Assembly: GCA_034531195.2 (NCBI GenBank) | Contig: JAVRBO020000103.1 | Span: 16,744-80,743 of the forward strand | DNA: 64,000 nucleotides | Source: Nostoc sp. ChiSLP01 | Lineage (GTDB): Bacteria > Cyanobacteriota > Cyanobacteriia > Cyanobacteriales > Nostocaceae | Direction: 5' to 3' | In this document: positions 9,388 through 35,052 of the stretch, piece after piece | Layout of the letters: each line of letters opens with the position of its first letter | Position numbering within the stretch: position 1 is the stretch's first letter | Made by a program: the position numbers and the translations under genes | The notes under the pieces: model-generated | Seen by the model: the letters and a program-made list of their open reading frames with translations, nothing else | Databases searched by the model: none | What the model was told of the DNA's origin: nothing

Positions 9388-9737
9388 TCCCTCCGCTTTG
9401 ATTTATTAAGCTTGGTTCTACTTGTCGGTAGGACAGACACAATCTCTTTTTCCACTCATTCCCAAAGCTGACTTTTCACTCTTATTTAGAAAACTTTGCT
9501 TCTATTTCCAAGTAAGAATGCTTGCTTAGAAGTTAGATTTAGCATTAGTTTTTTCACATGACGTGAAAAGTCAGATTTCATCGTTCGCAATTGCTAAATC
9601 AAGACTATAGCGAAGTTTGTTAATTATTAGACCTGTTGCAAAAGTCCCAAACACCCCACCCCCAACCAAGGCTACCGCGTACACATAAGTTTTTTAGAGT
9701 TGTTGTGTAAGACACAGAAGGTTAATTTTTGCTCTTC

Positions 9738-9901
9738 GATGCAACAAAGGTGCAAGGCAATGCAACAAAGGTGCAAGGCGATGCAACAAAGGTGCAAGGC
9801 AATGCAATAAAGGTGCAAGGCGATGCAATAAAGGTGCAAGGCGATGCAATAAAGGTGCAAGGCGATGCAATCAAGGTGCAAGGCGATGCAATAAAGGTGC
9901 A
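9738..9901. repeat. 21-bp tandem array A (about 8 units, GATGCAA[C/T]AAAGGTGCAAGGC)
   Basis: I counted the units directly, starting at 9738, 9759, 9780, 9801, 9822, 9843, 9864 and 9885 (the last partial). The reverse complement shares TTGCACCTTTA[AT]T with array C. Confidence 0.95.
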
Positions 9902-26953: not shown

Positions 26954-28840
26954 TTATATTTCTCTTAAAAAACTTGCATAATTCGCCCGAACTGTCATAG
27001 TAGTAGGATGACTGACACCTAAAGTCCGTTCGCAAATTTTCAAAGCTTGCTCAAACAGTGGTTTGGCTTTCCTGTAGCGTCTTGTATGGCGGTAGAGTGC
27101 TGCTAAATTATTCAGACTAATGGCGACATCGGGATGGTTTTCTCCCAAAAGACGTTTAGTCAGTTCCAAAGCTTGCTTATAGAAGGGTTCGGCTTCGCTG
27201 TAGCGTCCTGTAGATTCGTAAAGTTGTCCTAAATTGTTCAAGCTAGTAGCAACATCGGCGTGTTCTTCTCCCAGTAGCCGTTTTCTCAGCTTTAAAGCTT
27301 GCTTGAGCAAGGGTTCGGCTTCGCTGTAGCGTCCTGTAAAACAGTACAATGCTCCTAAATTGTTCAGGCTAGTAGCCACATGGGGATGTTCTTCTCCCAC
27401 TAAGCGTTTCCAGAGTTCTAAAGCTTGCTGATACAAAGATTCGGCTTTACCATAGCGTCCTGTAGATTCGTAGACTACTGCTAAATAGCTCAAATTAGTA
27501 GCGACATCAGGATGTTCTTCTCCTAGCAGGCGTTTTCTCAGTTTTAAAGCTTGCTCAAACAAAGGTCTGGCTTCGGTATAGTGTCCTGTAGATTCGTAGA
27601 GTAATGCTAAATTGTTGAGGCTAGTGGCGACATCAAGATGGTTGTCTCCCAACAGACGTTTTGTCAGTTCTAAAGCTTGCCGATACAAGGGTTCGGCTTC
27701 ACTGTAGCGTCCTGTAGATTCATAAAGTCCTGCTAAATTGTTGAGGCTAGCAGCGATATAAGAATGTTCTAAACCAAGATGATTTTGAGTTAGTTTTACA
27801 CACCGTTGCAACCAAGATTCTGCTTGCTGATAAAGTCCTTGTCCTTGATAAAACCAAGCTAATTTAGTAAACACAGCGATGAGGTTTTCATCGCTGAGAT
27901 ACTGGGATAGGTGGGTTGCAACTTCTGTAATGTGCGGGATATGTGGAGTGAAATTGACAATATCTTCAGGATTAGGCTGTTGCGGAATTAGATTTGCTAC
28001 CTCTAACATCATTGCTGCAAATTTAGTTTTTGCTTCATCCGCTTCATTTGAATTATCTAACTTTATTCGGAGAAGTTGCCGAATTAAGGGATTTAAAAGA
28101 TAAATTACTTTACTTTTCTGTTGTAGCAAATGCAATTCTAGTAAATCGGCGATCGCTTTTTCATCGAGCTGTTGTTTTTTCTCGTCTTCTATCGTCTCCA
28201 CAGATAAAGGAATGTCAGCTAAAGCACACAAACTCAGCAAACAGCCAAAGCTTTGTGCATTCTTATCTAGTTGTTCCCAACTCAATTCAAAAGCTTCAGC
28301 TACACCGTATTCGTAATGCATCAACGAGTTAGCATTGGCTACGGGTTCATGTTCTTCTCGCTTTTTCTCTAGCCGCTTTAGCAGTATTTCTAAAGACAAA
28401 TCCGGTATTTTATTGAGATATCGCCCCACTAACTCTAAGGCTAAAGGTGAATATCCCAAAAATTTACAAATTCTTTTGGCGACCCAGGGTTCTTGTTGCA
28501 GCCTTTCTCGAACCACTAGCGATTTTAATAGTTTTATCGCCGCTAATGGTTTGAGGACATCTAATTCGCTATTATATTTTGCCCTCAGGTAAGCTTGTAA
28601 CTTTTCTAGTTTGCCCTGACTTTTGGAAATAGCTAATTCAGGATAATTCTGGGCAAATTTGTCATATAGCTCGCCCATCCACTTTCTAAAAGTAGGGATA
28701 TCAACGTTTAATTCGCTGGCAAGTTGAGCTTCAGTTTTACCTAAATTTTCAGTCTTAAAATAGTTTACAAAAGCTACAGTCTGTTCAAGGGATAAGCCAG
28801 TAGTAGCAGCTTCTTTGGCTAGAAAATTAGCCCATTGCAT
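26954..28840 (-). CDS. HTH / ARC-remnant / TPR protein: paralogue of 30211..32601 lacking the P-loop NTPase core
   Basis: The N-terminal 90 aa are homologous to the neighbour (MQWANFLAKEAA..LSLEQTVAFVNYFKTENLGKTEAQLASELNVDIPTFRKWM). The sequence then jumps directly to LKPLAAIKLLKSLV..GYSPLALELVGRYL and 42-aa TPRs. No Walker A, Walker B or TTR motif is present. Confidence 0.85.
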   Translation of the reverse strand: MQWANFLAKEAATTGLSLEQTVAFVNYFKTENLGKTEAQLASELNVDIPTFRKWMGELYDKFAQNYPELAISKSQGKLEKLQAYLRAKYNSELDVLKPLAAIKLLKSLVVRERLQQEPWVAKRICKFLGYSPLALELVGRYLNKIPDLSLEILLKRLEKKREEHEPVANANSLMHYEYGVAEAFELSWEQLDKNAQSFGCLLSLCALADIPLSVETIEDEKKQQLDEKAIADLLELHLLQQKSKVIYLLNPLIRQLLRIKLDNSNEADEAKTKFAAMMLEVANLIPQQPNPEDIVNFTPHIPHITEVATHLSQYLSDENLIAVFTKLAWFYQGQGLYQQAESWLQRCVKLTQNHLGLEHSYIAASLNNLAGLYESTGRYSEAEPLYRQALELTKRLLGDNHLDVATSLNNLALLYESTGHYTEARPLFEQALKLRKRLLGEEHPDVATNLSYLAVVYESTGRYGKAESLYQQALELWKRLVGEEHPHVATSLNNLGALYCFTGRYSEAEPLLKQALKLRKRLLGEEHADVATSLNNLGQLYESTGRYSEAEPFYKQALELTKRLLGENHPDVAISLNNLAALYRHTRRYRKAKPLFEQALKICERTLGVSHPTTMTVRANYASFLREI

Positions 28841-28966
28841 AATAGTTTATTAACTTTATTTTTGATTCTACTTTGTCTCGATTTGCAAACCTCCTCTCTT
28901 TGAGGGAAATATACATTTATATAAAAAGATTTAAAAGCAGTTGCCACCTTTAGCCAATTGTCAGTT

Positions 28967-29239
28967 GAGCCTCAGAAGGTCAACGTCGAGCCTCAGAAGG
29001 TCAAAGTTGAGCCTCAGAAGGTCAACGTCGAGCCTCGGAAGGTCAACTTCGAGCCTCAGAAGGTCAACTTCGAGCCTCAGAAGGTCAACGTTGAGCCTCG
29101 GAAGGTCAAAGTTGAGCCTCAGAAGGTCAACTTCGAGCCTCAGAAGGTCAACGTCGAGCCTCGGAAGGTCAAAGTTGAGCCTCGGAAGGTCAAAGTTGAG
29201 CCTCAGAAGGTCAAAGTTGAGCCTCGGAAGGTCAAAGTT
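28967..29239. repeat. 21-bp tandem array B (13 units, GAGCCTC[A/G]GAAGGTCAA[C/A][G/T]T[C/T])
   Basis: I counted 13 contiguous units from 28967 to 29239. Variation is confined to 4 positions. The array begins 127 bp upstream of the start of the 26954..28840 gene. Confidence 0.95.
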
Positions 29240-29267
29240 GGCATTTAGAACTTAAAATGCTCGAGCT

Positions 29268-29291
29268 GTCTACGACGGGCTACGCCTACGC
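29268..29291 (+). repeat. 24-nt dispersed motif, copy 2
   Basis: The sequence GTCTACGACGGGCTACGCCTACGC begins 28 nt after array B. Confidence 0.85.
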
Positions 29292-29659: not shown

Positions 29660-30199
29660 TTAGCCTGCCCGCCGCAGGTTCTTGCTAACCCATTCCCTCG
29701 CTGCTGTCGGTGCTAATCGCTGCAACTCGGCGCAAAATCGTTTGTAGAAGGCTTCGTATTCACTGATAAACTCCCGATAGCTAAACCTTACTTTCTGCCA
29801 TTCGTCATTCCCTTCGCCATCCGATATCGCGGAATCTATGATGGATAAATACATCGTCTCGCCCTCTCGCTCAAAGAGAAATGCCGGCTGCCCTTGCTCC
29901 CCTTCGTCAAAACAGTAGCGGGCTTGAGCGCTACCTTTGAACTCGTGGCGGATTCTTTCGAGTTCCTCAATCCACTGAGAGAAGCACACGTCATTCGCTC
30001 CCCAATAACCCATATATGGGACGAAACGATTACCAATATTAATCAATAAAGCGCCATGAATGTGGCTGGAGGCATCTAATTCCGTCAACGGCAAGCGGGT
30101 ATTATTACCAACTTTGATGACAGCCAGATCCTCGAAAGTAATTTTGATAATGGAATTTTGTTGCATAAGCTTCAGATCGTGGTGTGATTTTGGGAGCAA
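29660..30199 (-). CDS. hypothetical protein, co-oriented immediately downstream of the NB-ARC/TPR gene
   Basis: It is 179 aa from TTG 30199 or 168 aa from ATG 30166, lying 12 or 44 nt after the upstream stop. I recognise no family (..FVPYMGYWGANDVCFSQWIEELERI..). It appears soluble, with no TM helix or signal peptide. Confidence 0.6.
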   Translation of the reverse strand: MLPKSHHDLKLMQQNSIIKITFEDLAVIKVGNNTRLPLTELDASSHIHGALLINIGNRFVPYMGYWGANDVCFSQWIEELERIRHEFKGSAQARYCFDEGEQGQPAFLFEREGETMYLSIIDSAISDGEGNDEWQKVRFSYREFISEYEAFYKRFCAELQRLAPTAAREWVSKNLRRAG

Positions 30200-30210
30200 G
30201 GGGGCGATCG

Positions 30211-32601
30211 CTAGCGATATGCTTCTCTTAAAAACCTGGCATGATTTCCCCGAACCGTGATTGTATCAGGATGACCTACACCTAAAACACGCTCATAAAT
30301 AGCCAAAGCTTGCTGATATAGAGGTTCAGCTTCGCTGTAGCGTCCTGTAGAACGGTAGAGTTCTGCCAGATTGTTCAAGGTAGTGGCGACATCGGGATGG
30401 TTTTCTCCCAGTAAGCGTTTTCTCAGTTCTAAAGCTTGCTGATACAGAGGTTCAGCTTCGCTATAGTGTTCTGTAGAACGGTAGACTGTTGCGAGATTGT
30501 TCAAGGTAGTGGCGACATCGGGATGGTTTTCTCCCTGTAGGCCTTTTCTCAATGTCAAAGCTTGTAGATGCAAAGCTTCAGCTTCGCTGTAGCGTCCTGT
30601 AGAACAGTAGAGTACTGCCAGATTGTTCAGGCTAGAGGCGACATGGGGATGGTTGTCTTTGAATAAGCGTTTTGTCAGTTCTAAAGTTTGCTGCAAGAGA
30701 GGTTCAGCCTCGCTGTAACGTCCTCTAAAACGGTAGAATAATCCCAGATTGTTCATGCTAGTGGCGACATCGGGATCGTTGTCTCCCAGTAACCGTTTTC
30801 TCAGTTCTAAAGCTTCCTTATAAAGCTGTTCAGCTTCTTTGTAGCGTCCTCTATAATCGTAGACTAATGCCAAATTGTTCAGGCTATTGGCGACATAAGA
30901 ATGGTTGTCTCCCAGTAAGCGTTTTGTCAGTTCTAAATTTTGCTGCAAGATAGGTTCAGCTTCGCTGTAGCGTGCTGTAGAAAGATAGAGTATTCCTAGA
31001 TTGTGGAGGCTAGCAGCAACATGGAGGTGTTCTAAACCAAAACGATTTTTAGTCACTTCTACACACTGCTGCAACCAAGGTTGTGCTTGCTCGTATAAGC
31101 CTTGTCCTGTATAAAACCAGCCTAAACCCCTGAATATGTAAATTAAATCTTCATCGTTGACGTAGCTAATCATATAATTAGCTACTTCTACCAAATGAGG
31201 GATAAAAGGGGTGAGTTGTTGAATCAAATCACGGTTAGGGAATTGCGAAATTTGCTTTGCTTTCTCTATCATGTGAACGGTAAAAGCAGTTTTCACTTCA
31301 TCAGCCTCGCTAGACTTATTTAGCTTCATTTGAAAAAATTGCCGAATCAGTGGATGTAGTCGATATATTCCTTTACCCCGACGTTGTAGCAAATGCAGTT
31401 TTAGCAACTCAGCTATAGCTTTTTCCTTGAGTTCTTGTTCTTCGTCATTTTCTACCGCCTCAACAGAAAAAGGAATGTCAGCCAAAGCATACAGACTCAG
31501 CCTACAGCCTAATCTTTGTGCATTTTCATCCAACTGTTCCCAACTCAATGCAAAAGCTTCAGCCACACCATATTCATAACGCATCAATGGGTTAGCCTTG
31601 GCTATTGCTTCATGTTCCAGTCGCTTTTTCTCTAGCCGCTTCAGCAGTTTTTCTAGAGACAAATCTGGCATTGTATCCAGATATCGCCCCACTAACTCTA
31701 ACGCCAAAGGTAAATATCCCAAGTCTCTACAAATTTTTCTCGCAACCCAAGGTTCGCTTTTCAACCGTTCTCTGTCAACCAGCGATTTTAATAATTTCAT
31801 CGCCGCCAATGGTTTGAGAACACCCAAAGGTAATTGTGGCAAAGTTCTATCAAACCCCAAGCGCGTTGTCAGCAATACTTTAAACCGAAGTGATTCTGGC
31901 GGTAGATAAGACTGAACCTGTTTTTTGTAGTCGGTGACATCATCAAACACCAGCAGCACTTCACCTTGTTGCCAATTCTGCCAGCAGTATCTCAGCCTAT
32001 CTGCTAATTCCCAATCATCCGGTGCAATGAGTTTAAATTTTAATTGAGCAAATCTGAGAATTTGAATTCCGACATCTATTCCCTGTACAGATAACCAGCA
32101 AACCCCACCTTCATAATTCTGCAAATACTGTTTGGCGTATTGGGTAGCAAGTTCAGTTTTCCCGACTCCACCCATACCCGCCACAGCTACAATTGCAACT
32201 TGCCGAGATGTTTGTAATTTCTGGTGCAGTTCTTCTAGTTTTGTCTCACGCCCCACAAATTTTTCAAATGGAACAGCAGGCGGAATATTTTCATAAATCT
32301 GCTTAACTGTGGGGTGGGCATCTTGCCCGCCATTATATTTCTTTATCAGGCAAGCCCGTAACTTTTCTAGCTTACCGCGACTGTTAGAAGTGGCTAATTC
32401 AGGATAACTCTTGGCAAACTTGTCATACACCTCAGCCATCCGCTTTTTGAAAGCAGCCGCACCAATGTTTAATTTGCTGGCTAGTTTCGCTTCACTCTTT
32501 CCTGAGTTTTCAGTCTTCAACCGCTCTACAAAAGCTGCCGTTTGCTCTGGGGATAAGCTATTAATAGCAGCTTCTTTGGCTAAAAAATCAGCCCATTCCA
32601 T
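30211..32601 (-). CDS. STAND NTPase: LuxR/sigma-r4-like HTH + NB-ARC + kinesin-light-chain-type TPR array
   Basis: The HTH-like pattern is LSPEQTAAFVERLKTENSGKSEAKLASKLNIGAAAFKKRMAEVYDKF. NB-ARC motifs are present: Walker A AGMGGVGKTELA, Walker B VLLVFDDV, LLTTR, GYLPLALELVG. About nine 42-aa TPRs follow (LNNLAxLYxxxGRYSEAEPL). Confidence 0.9.
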   Translation of the reverse strand: MEWADFLAKEAAINSLSPEQTAAFVERLKTENSGKSEAKLASKLNIGAAAFKKRMAEVYDKFAKSYPELATSNSRGKLEKLRACLIKKYNGGQDAHPTVKQIYENIPPAVPFEKFVGRETKLEELHQKLQTSRQVAIVAVAGMGGVGKTELATQYAKQYLQNYEGGVCWLSVQGIDVGIQILRFAQLKFKLIAPDDWELADRLRYCWQNWQQGEVLLVFDDVTDYKKQVQSYLPPESLRFKVLLTTRLGFDRTLPQLPLGVLKPLAAMKLLKSLVDRERLKSEPWVARKICRDLGYLPLALELVGRYLDTMPDLSLEKLLKRLEKKRLEHEAIAKANPLMRYEYGVAEAFALSWEQLDENAQRLGCRLSLYALADIPFSVEAVENDEEQELKEKAIAELLKLHLLQRRGKGIYRLHPLIRQFFQMKLNKSSEADEVKTAFTVHMIEKAKQISQFPNRDLIQQLTPFIPHLVEVANYMISYVNDEDLIYIFRGLGWFYTGQGLYEQAQPWLQQCVEVTKNRFGLEHLHVAASLHNLGILYLSTARYSEAEPILQQNLELTKRLLGDNHSYVANSLNNLALVYDYRGRYKEAEQLYKEALELRKRLLGDNDPDVATSMNNLGLFYRFRGRYSEAEPLLQQTLELTKRLFKDNHPHVASSLNNLAVLYCSTGRYSEAEALHLQALTLRKGLQGENHPDVATTLNNLATVYRSTEHYSEAEPLYQQALELRKRLLGENHPDVATTLNNLAELYRSTGRYSEAEPLYQQALAIYERVLGVGHPDTITVRGNHARFLREAYR

Positions 32602-32735: not shown

Positions 32736-32984
32736 ATGAAAACTGCTTTAACAAATCCAGTCAACGCTAATCAAACCACCCAAACTTCGCAATTAATCCC
32801 CGCCTCGCCAACATTAGTAGAAAATCCATCTACTTGGATGCGAAACGGAGACAGTCCAGGCGAAATTATCCTTGCAGTGGCAATTTTGACTTCAGTGTCC
32901 ATTGCTGGAATTGCCTCTGTGATTGTCGCAATTACAGGTTTAGTTAAAGTTTTAGTACACCCGACAAGCGAAAAAACTAAATAG
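32736..32984 (+). CDS. small hypothetical membrane protein, divergent from the STAND gene
   Basis: An ATG with GAGG 9 nt upstream opens an 82-aa ORF. The N-terminal half is polar. A single C-terminal TM helix is present (IILAVAILTSVSIAGIASVIVAITGLV). Confidence 0.45.
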   Translation: MKTALTNPVNANQTTQTSQLIPASPTLVENPSTWMRNGDSPGEIILAVAILTSVSIAGIASVIVAITGLVKVLVHPTSEKTK

Positions 32985-33103
32985 AAGCACTTCTAAAGGC
33001 AAATTCTTTGCTTTGTTGCTATCCCGCCTTGGAATCAATTCCAAGGCTAGTAGCCTAAGTCCGTTCAAACGGACTAAATTTTAGTTAATTTTAGCCTCTG
33101 AAC

Positions 33104-33334
33104 CTCAACGTTGAGCCTTTTATCTTCAACGTTGCATCTTTTATCTTCAACGTTGCACCTTTAATCCTCGAAGTTGCGTCTTTTATCCTCAACGTTGCAC
33201 CTTTAATCCTCGAAGTTGCGTCTTTTATCTTCAACGTTGCACCTTTGATCCTCGAAGTTGCGCCTTTTATCTTCAACGTTGCACCTTCGATCCTCGAGGT
33301 TGCGTCTTTTATCCTCGAAGTTGCACCTTTTATC
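33104..33334. repeat. 21-bp tandem array C (11 units, alternating [C/T]TCAACGTTGCACCTTT[A/G]ATC and CTCGAAGTTGCGTCTTTTATC)
   Basis: I counted 11 units from 33104 to 33334 plus a degenerate 12th. The first unit and its left flank (AGCCTCTGAACCTCAACGTTGAGCC) resemble array B units. Confidence 0.95.
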
Positions 33335-33373
33335 TTTAAGTTTGGTGTTGGAAACTCGAAACGACTAAGCTAT

Positions 33374-33398
33374 CTCTACGACGGACTACGCCTAAGCT
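33374..33398 (+). repeat. 24-nt dispersed motif, copy 3 (2 mismatches)
   Basis: The sequence TCTCTACGACGGACTACGCCTAAGC begins 39 nt after array C. Confidence 0.8.
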
Positions 33399-33717
33399 GT
33401 AATAATATGAATTATTTAGCGACTATTGGCGATCGCAGCTCTATATTTGACCGTATTATGTAATACGCACCATCTCAACACTAGAACGAATTCTTCCTGA
33501 ATCTGAAAGATGCTGGTGGCGATACTGACAAATAAAAAAATATCCAATCAACTCTTGTGAGATAGGCGTCTCGCCTTTAAGCAAAGTCCCATAAAATCGC
33601 CATCCCACAAAAGGTAGATAAATTAAGTAATTAAAAAATCTCACTTAATAACCACCATAGCGATCGCACCTTTTAAAATTAATTACCATAGCTAATTACT
33701 GCTGGAGGTACTCCAAT

Positions 33718-35052
33718 ATGAAACAGCTAAAGTCCGCAGAGGAAATGCCTGGTACTTATGGCTTGCCCTTCTTGGGCGAGACTTTAGAAATATTCCGCGA
33801 TTTAGAACTGTATGTATGGCGACGATTCCATCAGTATGGTTCAGTTTTTAAGACCAGGGTACTGGGACGTAAACGTGCTTATTTAATTGGCCCTGATGCT
33901 AATCGCCTGGTGCTGGTAGAGCAAGCAGAACACATGTCATCGCGGATAGGTTGGTATTTCCTGGAACCGACATTTGGCAACAATATCTTATTACAAGACG
34001 GGGAAGAACATCGGGTAACTCGTCGCTTAATGTATCCAGCGTTTCATGGAAAAGCGATCCCTACATATTTCGACACAATTAAAAATATAGTCGAAGATTT
34101 CCTCAAAGATTGGGGAGAGGGCAAAACAGTTTCTTTAAATTCTAGTTTTCGTCAGTTAACTCTAAAAGTAGCTACTCGCCTATTTTTAGGAAGTGAAAAC
34201 GAAAGCGAAGTAGAGCAAACTAGTAAGTGGTTTACACAACTAATCGATAGCAGTTTGGCATTACTTAAATGGAATGTTCCTTTTACTTTATATGGTCGCG
34301 GTCAAAATGCCAGAAGTGAATTAGTAGCTTTTTTGAATCAAGCGATCGCTAAACGTATTGAAAACGGTAATTTAGAAGAATCAAAAGATGTTTTAGGATT
34401 ACTATTAGCTGCTGTTGATGAAGACGGCAATAAGTTAAACCAAGCACAAGTAATTAACGAAGCATTATTACTGCTGTTTGCAGGACATGAAACCACAGCT
34501 TCTTTGCTCAGTTGGGTAATATTTGAATTAGGTCATCGTCCAGAATGGCGAGAGCGACTGCGTAAAGAACAGTTAGCAGTTGTGGGAAATAATCCTCTAA
34601 CTCTGTCGCATCTCAAACAATTTCCAGAGTTAACCAACGTCCTCAAAGAAACAGAACGCCTTTACCCTCCAGTCTATGCCTATAATCGTGGCGTCCTCAA
34701 AGATATTGAGTATGCAGGCTATCGCATTCCCGCTGGTTGGTTTGTGACAATTTCCCCAATGCTGACTCACCGCCTACCAGAACTGTACGCCGATCCCCAT
34801 CGCTTCGACCCCGACCGCTTTGCACCACCTCGCGAAGAAGATAAAAAGCATCCTTTTGGACTAATCGGTTTTGGTGGTGGTTCCCACAGTTGCTTAGGCA
34901 TGGAATTTGCCCAAATGGAAATGAAAATTGTGCTTTCTACACTACTTCGCCATTACGATTGGACAGTAAAACCTGATTATTCTGACGTTGCTCCATATTG
35001 TAAAGCTTCTAAAGTTAAGGATACTTTAGAAGCATATATTACAGTACTTTGA
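33718..35052 (+). CDS. cytochrome P450 (CYP120-like size and pattern)
   Basis: It has the I-helix AGHETTAS, the ExxR motif ETERLYPP, PERF-like DPHRFDPDRF and the heme loop FGGGSHSCLGMEFA. Confidence 0.9.
   Translation: MKQLKSAEEMPGTYGLPFLGETLEIFRDLELYVWRRFHQYGSVFKTRVLGRKRAYLIGPDANRLVLVEQAEHMSSRIGWYFLEPTFGNNILLQDGEEHRVTRRLMYPAFHGKAIPTYFDTIKNIVEDFLKDWGEGKTVSLNSSFRQLTLKVATRLFLGSENESEVEQTSKWFTQLIDSSLALLKWNVPFTLYGRGQNARSELVAFLNQAIAKRIENGNLEESKDVLGLLLAAVDEDGNKLNQAQVINEALLLLFAGHETTASLLSWVIFELGHRPEWRERLRKEQLAVVGNNPLTLSHLKQFPELTNVLKETERLYPPVYAYNRGVLKDIEYAGYRIPAGWFVTISPMLTHRLPELYADPHRFDPDRFAPPREEDKKHPFGLIGFGGGSHSCLGMEFAQMEMKIVLSTLLRHYDWTVKPDYSDVAPYCKASKVKDTLEAYITVL

Follow-up and report, generated by a model that had tools for sequence, protein, structure and literature searches.

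Heterocystous cyanobacteria contain short tandemly repeated repetitive (STRR) sequences. To our knowledge, the heptamer repeats of cyanobacteria have been recognized for decades and lack a mechanism. MalT, a STAND regulator, binds arrays of MalT boxes. G-rich heptamer repeats occur in Nostoc and Xanthomonas, as described in a report by Rehm et al. (2015, PMC4692102). We compared such systems with a 21-bp tandem array, here called array D, located upstream of a gene for a STAND-related protein in Nostoc sp. ChiSLP01. The array lies within a 64,000-nucleotide stretch of DNA that was analyzed as a whole and that we refer to as the window. The host genome of the window is cyanobacterial (9.07 Mb in 111 contigs), and the window itself is rich in HIP1 and has 41% G+C. 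DNA near-identical to the host genome is also present in root-metagenome runs. The DNA contigs of the source sample break at array D and hence provide no copy-number information.

TRF detects array D at positions 28963-29240, with a period of 21 bp, 13.2 copies, 91% matches and a score of 409; no strand is assigned, and the unit reads GAGCCTCRGAAGGTCAAMKTY on the + strand, corresponding to TTGACCTTCYGAGGCTCRAMK along the gene strand. Set in register from 28967, the array comprises 13 head-to-tail units of GAGCCTC[A/G]GAAGGTCAA[C/A][G/T]T[C/T] spanning 28967-29239. Variation is confined to unit positions 8, 18, 19 and 21, and the period is exactly 21 bp, with 0 indels across the 13 units. A distance of 127 bp separates the first unit from the start codon (ATG at 28840) of a 628-aa gene. 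TRF and the register thus confirm an earlier description made from the DNA letters (hereafter the sequence-only reading), which had reported 13 units with four variable positions 127 bp upstream of this start codon. That description had extended the array to 29291, which overshoots by 51 bp, as the array stops at 29239/29240; the remaining segment (29241-29291) consists of a short hairpin-like sequence and a 24-nt small dispersed repeat and is not array. We agree that the array is not CRISPR, the units being contiguous and free of unique spacers, and that open frames crossing it are artefacts of its periodicity: ORFs 28941-29255 and 28958-29248 contain nothing but repeat and match no Pfam family significantly, the latter giving a single sub-threshold match (E 0.002, 18.8 bits versus a 35-bit cut-off). 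For array D, a coding function was rejected on the grounds that no family match is significant and that the variable positions are synonymous in no frame. The 21-bp units contain no 7-nt sub-period, with self-match at lag 7 at chance level, and a STRR in the strict sense, with a heptamer unit, is excluded by the 21-bp unit of array D. Scans of the window with Rfam at gathering thresholds and for tRNAs returned no matches, and a megablast search of a plasmid collection likewise found none.

The 628-aa gene (26954-28840, - strand) encodes an HTH-like N-terminal domain of ~95 aa (the N-domain), assigned with an N-domain model and a fold search, followed by TPR_12/TPR_10 matches in Pfam and no NB-ARC. 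Its leader and promoter region (28841-28962, - strand) is conserved in 14 aligned orthologues and is abutted at its distal end by array D. A promoter scan predicts a promoter-like site for this gene at 28935-28908 (TTTAAA-16-TATATT). The sequence-only reading had placed a gene with an HTH-like start on either side of the array. This holds for the 628-aa gene, whose 5' end faces the array. On the other side, however, the immediate neighbor is an ORF of 179 aa (29660-30199, - strand), which has no family match and is found only in this genome and in the relative G032. Only then follows the 3' end of a full-length 796-aa paralogue (30211-32601, - strand), in which Pfam and tblastn locate the same N-domain, then NB-ARC and then TPR. 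The 24-nt dispersed repeat, GTCTACGACGGGCTACGCCTACGC, occupies 29268-29291 on the + strand and is separate from array D. Its other copies in the window are found at 33374-33397, 7687, 60709 and 61552, and most 628-type orthologues have it upstream as well, in reverse orientation. We considered this motif as a leader behind arrays D and the related array E (see below) and rejected it as an independent repeat with 77 genome copies at ≤4 mismatches, 6 of which lie within 150 bp of a 21-bp array.

Divergent from the 796-aa gene is a small ORF of 82 aa (32736-32984, + strand), which is single-TM and has no family match. By tblastn it is matched in all 21 sampled 796-type upstream regions and at two other loci (23 loci besides the window's own, mostly at 74-95% identity), which indicates that it is a genuine small gene paired with the STAND gene. 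Downstream of it TRF locates array E (33103-33334, no strand assigned), 11 units of a related 21-bp repeat that reads CAACKTYGAGGATAAAAGGYG along the gene strand. The gene beyond array E (window 33335-35052) is convergent and of FHA/FAD type in most species and a cytochrome P450 gene only in this genome and G032. In the relative G025, homology ends exactly at the proximal edge of the array at the E site. This end of homology and the swap of neighbors together indicate that rearrangement breakpoints coincide with the array.

Only three homologues of the ~95-aa N-domain are present in this genome: the 628-aa gene, the 796-aa gene and a split gene on contig C57. The C57 paralogue (C57:253278-257674) seems to be broken into three ORFs, the first (78 aa) containing the HTH and the next two measuring 403 and 753 aa, and a single TAA falls within the tblastn match. 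Divergent from the split gene is a 99-aa membrane ORF, with a D-type array 80 bp beyond that ORF, and the G025 orthologue is arranged alike; we detected no homology between the small divergent ORFs of the window and of C57. All three N-domain genes have a D/E-type array upstream, within ~130-740 bp. For the 796-aa gene this is array E, ~500 bp upstream beyond the divergent 82-aa membrane ORF, and for the C57 gene a D-type array ~610 bp upstream beyond the other small divergent ORF. By our estimate, ~15 D/E places cover ~0.4% of the genome, and the linkage is therefore not a matter of chance: the array family is non-randomly linked to the N-domain gene family, and this link is real. Across 60 relatives, at least 17 of 21 loci of 796-type orthologues have a 21-bp array placed between roughly -570 and -1040, with 5-21 copies of related units (consensus CAACGTTGAGGWTMAAAGGYK). 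Within the E-type unit, the AAAGG and CAAC-N-T blocks are conserved, and the other positions turn over. Both these blocks and the retention of the array could reflect selection. For most species, the E array is found between the 3' ends of the 82-aa-type small ORF and the convergent FHA/FAD-type gene, which is not a promoter region, and the divergent proximal promoter of 796-type genes contains no unit-like site. A correlation between N-domain gene presence and D arrays across genomes, prompted by three gene-less genomes with 0-1 pattern matches, was dropped because several gene-bearing genomes also lack D arrays and because G023 is rich in E-type arrays.

We examined the orthologous site of array D in relatives. 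Upstream of 628-type orthologues there is a well-conserved block of ~170 bp, and just distal to it every orthologue has at least one unit-like element, TTGAGGTTCAAAGGCTCAA, which ends ~25-30 bp upstream of the predicted -35 hexamer. A single unit is found in eight genomes (G026, G028, G009, G007, G016, G001, G005 and G006), two units in six (G002, G003, G013, G020, G029 and G035) and about two in G008, and three genomes have ~9-11 (G030, G032 and G015), with 13 in the genome studied here. The comparison of unit numbers suggested by the sequence-only reading as a check for VNTR behavior is thus positive, with ~1, 2, 9, 11 and 13 units at one orthologous site. Most 628-type orthologues have 1-2 units, and high multiplicity is the exception among them. 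At the G032 site the unit is of D type and oriented as in our genome. Together with the series of unit numbers, this indicates that array D arose from an ancestral unit by lineage-specific expansion.

The D unit is dispersed in the genome and across the genus. At a threshold of at least 19 of 21 bases it is found at 12 places in this genome, 10 of which are contig ends, so that the true number of loci is ~7. Contigs that end inside D-family arrays are C6, C30, C32, C44 (at both ends), C75, C81, C97, C102 and C105, and many further contig ends stop within other 21-bp families; 21-bp repeats are a main cause of fragmentation of this short-read assembly. The flanks of D-family loci do not align and share no common sequence, and the neighbors include histidine kinase, glycosyltransferase, DedA-type and ABC-permease genes, toxin-antitoxin pairs and another P-loop/TPR gene. 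A MITE or REP element was rejected, as we found no common flank sequence, conserved ends, terminal inverted repeats or target duplications. Of the 37 genomes of the genus, 32 matched a pattern of two D units; the 24 genomes examined from other families did not, and the reversed pattern, used as a control, had 0 matches. The complete genome G032 has at least nine D-unit loci. In G020 (8.23-Mb chromosome), a 16-unit D-type array (L091:1471-1798, equivalent to G020:C1:1729970-1730297) is found in frame within an ORF that exceeds 1100 aa and has P-loop and WD40 motifs, the repeat being translated as (SEGQxxx)n, and another D-unit copy in G020 has a radical-SAM gene on one side and a permease gene on the other. 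The D repeat family thus serves as a protein linker in a relative, and RNA contigs of a relative show an in-gene copy transcribed together with its gene. E-type arrays are abundant in G023, a genome without an N-domain gene. The families D, E and Fam0 are each patchy among species, with abundances that differ by family.

Array D belongs to a much larger class. Genome-wide TRF output reduced to primary periods yields 124 period-21 arrays of at least 3 copies in this genome, which fall into 45 sequence families, 18 of them multi-locus. Neighboring periods are nearly empty, with 1 array at 19 bp, 2 at 20 bp, 0 at 22 bp and 1 at 23 bp; there are 11 at 18 bp, 8 at 24 bp and 13-17 at 27 bp (17 in the tally, 13 counting exact-length units only). 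In two complete genomes of the genus, 400-kb samples taken arbitrarily contain 4 and 3 period-21 arrays and none at 17-20, 22 or 23 bp. Tandem repeats longer than 9 bp in the genus are almost exclusively of 21 bp and belong to dozens of unrelated families. The largest family in the genome (GATGCAAYAAAGGTGCAAGGC, 25 loci) is represented in the window at 9737-9901 (no strand assigned), unrelated to any STAND gene. The 21-bp families as a whole have no motif in common beyond chance, and an AAAGGTGCAA block recurs in several of them. The self-complementarity of 21-bp units exceeds that of shuffles only slightly (mean 11.6 versus 10.8), and palindromy was therefore rejected as a property of the class. 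Genome-wide, 21-bp arrays have no polarity, orientation or preferred gene end relative to neighboring genes. Members of one family are found between genes and within long open frames alike, and unit sequences are near-identical across loci and species despite unrelated flanks. In the searchable literature we found no account of 21-bp arrays in cyanobacteria. As a side observation, a protein family of ~125 aa (M..RKKRS..LEK.E.RL.G.KSI...) is encoded within 1.2 kb of eight 21-bp arrays from seven or eight families, for example at C108:44976-45371, C16:253-645 and C50:229451-229846, and a second family of ~155 aa (MA.N...SL...D..AVMQAI..IREKLPFL) adjoins four 21-bp arrays.

How may array D be explained? 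According to the sequence-only reading, it could be an iteron-like operator whose 21-bp phasing suits cooperative binding by an oligomerizing protein. On this idea, the STAND-type proteins encoded next to the array would recognize its units through their HTH N-domain, as MalT does on its boxes, and would thereby autoregulate the locus or be titrated. The HTH-like domain reported for the neighboring gene is in line with modeling: an alignment model of the N-domain yields a helical bundle of the sigma70-region-4/LuxR type (pLDDT 80), whose top Foldseek matches are mainly ECF sigma region 4 and NarL/LuxR HTH domains, at E values of 0.2-2, which are not significant. For the C57 paralogue, Pfam matches to Sigma70_r4 and GerE stay below threshold, and a sequence search of the PDB with the N-domain profile was uninformative. 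Binding would also fit with arrays upstream of all three N-domain genes that are syntenic across species, with the unit that each 628-type orthologue keeps near its predicted -35 box and with a dyad symmetry, TCAACGTTGA, in some unit copies. It is the center of this dyad, however, that varies most within the unit, whether units are compared inside an array or from one species to another, and we found no covariation of the predicted recognition helix with the repeat unit. The helices of the C57 type (TEATVKSRFAGIY) and the 628 type (DIPTFRKWMGELY) are strongly unlike while the unit is identical, and the 796b-type helix, GVGVFKKLMTKVY, is accompanied by E-like arrays in G029 or by an unrelated GATGCATTCACAATGC array in G024 and G007. 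The position of the E array, mostly between convergent 3' ends and 570-1040 bp from the STAND start codon, the divergent 796-type promoter without a unit-like site and the one or two units of most 628-type orthologues likewise speak against an operator. D units are moreover common at loci without such genes, also within ORFs: ~five further D-unit loci occur in this genome, at least nine in G032 and an in-frame copy in G020, and E-type arrays abound in G023 without any N-domain gene. The repeats are hence not confined to a controlled locus or regulon. This frequent occurrence elsewhere, which the sequence-only reading had itself regarded as weakening its proposal, leaves the dedicated iteron-like operator unsupported, and we consider it unlikely that the units serve the N-domain as binding sites.

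The sharp preference for 21 bp, with 124 arrays versus 0-2 at the neighboring periods, 45 unrelated families and the same picture in three genomes, could point to a trans-acting factor of the genus whose footprint spans two helical turns. Such a factor, either a protein that binds DNA or an activity of recombination/repair, would make, homogenize or use 21-bp arrays, and array D would be one of its substrates. Near-identical units at loci and in species with unrelated flanks, and the AAAGGTGCAA block of several families, are consistent with such a factor. Yet no candidate gene was identified, the families as a whole share no motif, their self-complementarity is close to that of shuffles, and there is no conserved leader or boundary sequence. 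A passive filter could contribute as well; arrays in genes are tolerated because 21 is a multiple of 3. We regard a factor of this kind as improbable. A combined explanation appears a little more doubtful still: an undescribed Nostoc-type activity that counts two helical turns, a DNA-binding or recombination factor, would seed, expand and homogenize 21-bp arrays of many sequences, and HTH-STAND proteins, at whose loci D/E arrays would have been kept from before the duplication, would use them as phased landing pads, making array D both the product of a two-turn-counting system and a working multi-site operator. Finally, array D could act in RNA. Read-through from the 796-aa gene and the 179-aa ORF would carry its - strand, whose predicted long, imperfect hairpin may be a terminator, processing site or insulator before the 628-aa gene. 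The first 150 nt of the - strand (28963-29112) fold with -70.4 kcal/mol (z = -7.3 versus shuffles, compared with z = -1.7 for the + strand), and the structured strand at each of the three STAND loci runs in the direction of the gene that turns its 3' end towards the array. Tandem repetition itself inflates such z-scores, however, the family has no fixed orientation relative to genes genome-wide, no terminator-like site was found at the locus, and Rfam gives no match. The predicted hairpin would be relevant only if read-through transcripts cross the array, and a role in RNA is in our view very unlikely. The gap in fold stability between the - and + strands stems from G:U pairs in the quasi-palindromic unit.

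It is rather likely that array D is a variable-number expansion of an ancestral unit and a member of a genus-wide, dispersed superfamily of 21-bp minisatellites, and it is probably not a control site built for the neighboring regulator gene. The ancestral 21-bp unit would have occupied its place next to the leader of this gene family, on the upstream side, from a time before the gene duplicated. Unit number would then expand and contract by replication slippage or unequal recombination, and gene conversion may homogenize units within arrays and between loci. The 13-fold multiplicity would have no dedicated regulatory role for the 628-aa gene, and any regulatory site would be limited to the basal one or two units. 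Two observations run counter to an entirely neutral repeat: the arrays upstream of three of three N-domain genes are beyond chance, and at least 17 of 21 species keep the E-type array at the 796-type gene, which means fewer losses than one would expect of a neutral repeat. For the locus, a tempting but poorly supported regulatory story gives way to a testable one, in which the basal unit rather than the multiplicity is the conserved part of a variable-number repeat. Array D itself is ordinary for these genomes, and what merits further attention is the 21-bp rule of the class as a whole. Beside the heptamers it is a second, sharply defined ruler and provides a new handle on the origin and spread of such repeats, and 21-bp arrays explain many contig breaks in short-read Nostoc assemblies.

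We compared array D and its class with known repeat systems. Like iterons and MalT boxes, array D consists of phased direct repeats beside a gene whose product is STAND-related and probably contains an HTH. In contrast to these sites, the 21-bp repeats are not restricted to one locus or a regulon-like set, occur in a genome lacking the protein, take up non-promoter positions and do not covary with a recognition helix. Bacterial VNTRs or minisatellites of the contingency-locus type also differ in unit number at one orthologous site just upstream of a promoter. The 21-bp steps of array D, however, preserve helical phase, the array is placed upstream of the -35 box rather than between -35 and -10 or in an ORF, and its variation is known here from comparison between genomes. 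REP/BIME and MITE-type elements are similarly dispersed, intergenic and partly palindromic, but the 21-bp arrays have no terminal inverted repeats, conserved ends, target duplications or transposase, and the tandem array itself is the repeated entity. With STRR and heptamer repeats, the 21-bp class shares non-coding tandem arrays at many intergenic sites with unrelated flanks. Both kinds are specific to particular lineages, vary in copy number and lack an assigned function, and they abound in the same genomes; the present genome has 861 heptamer arrays. The 21-bp class differs from these repeats by a 21-bp unit without a 7-nt sub-period, by dozens of unrelated units of exactly that length and by members that are also found in frame in genes. 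The nearest known relatives of the 21-bp class are thus the heptamer repeats of cyanobacteria.
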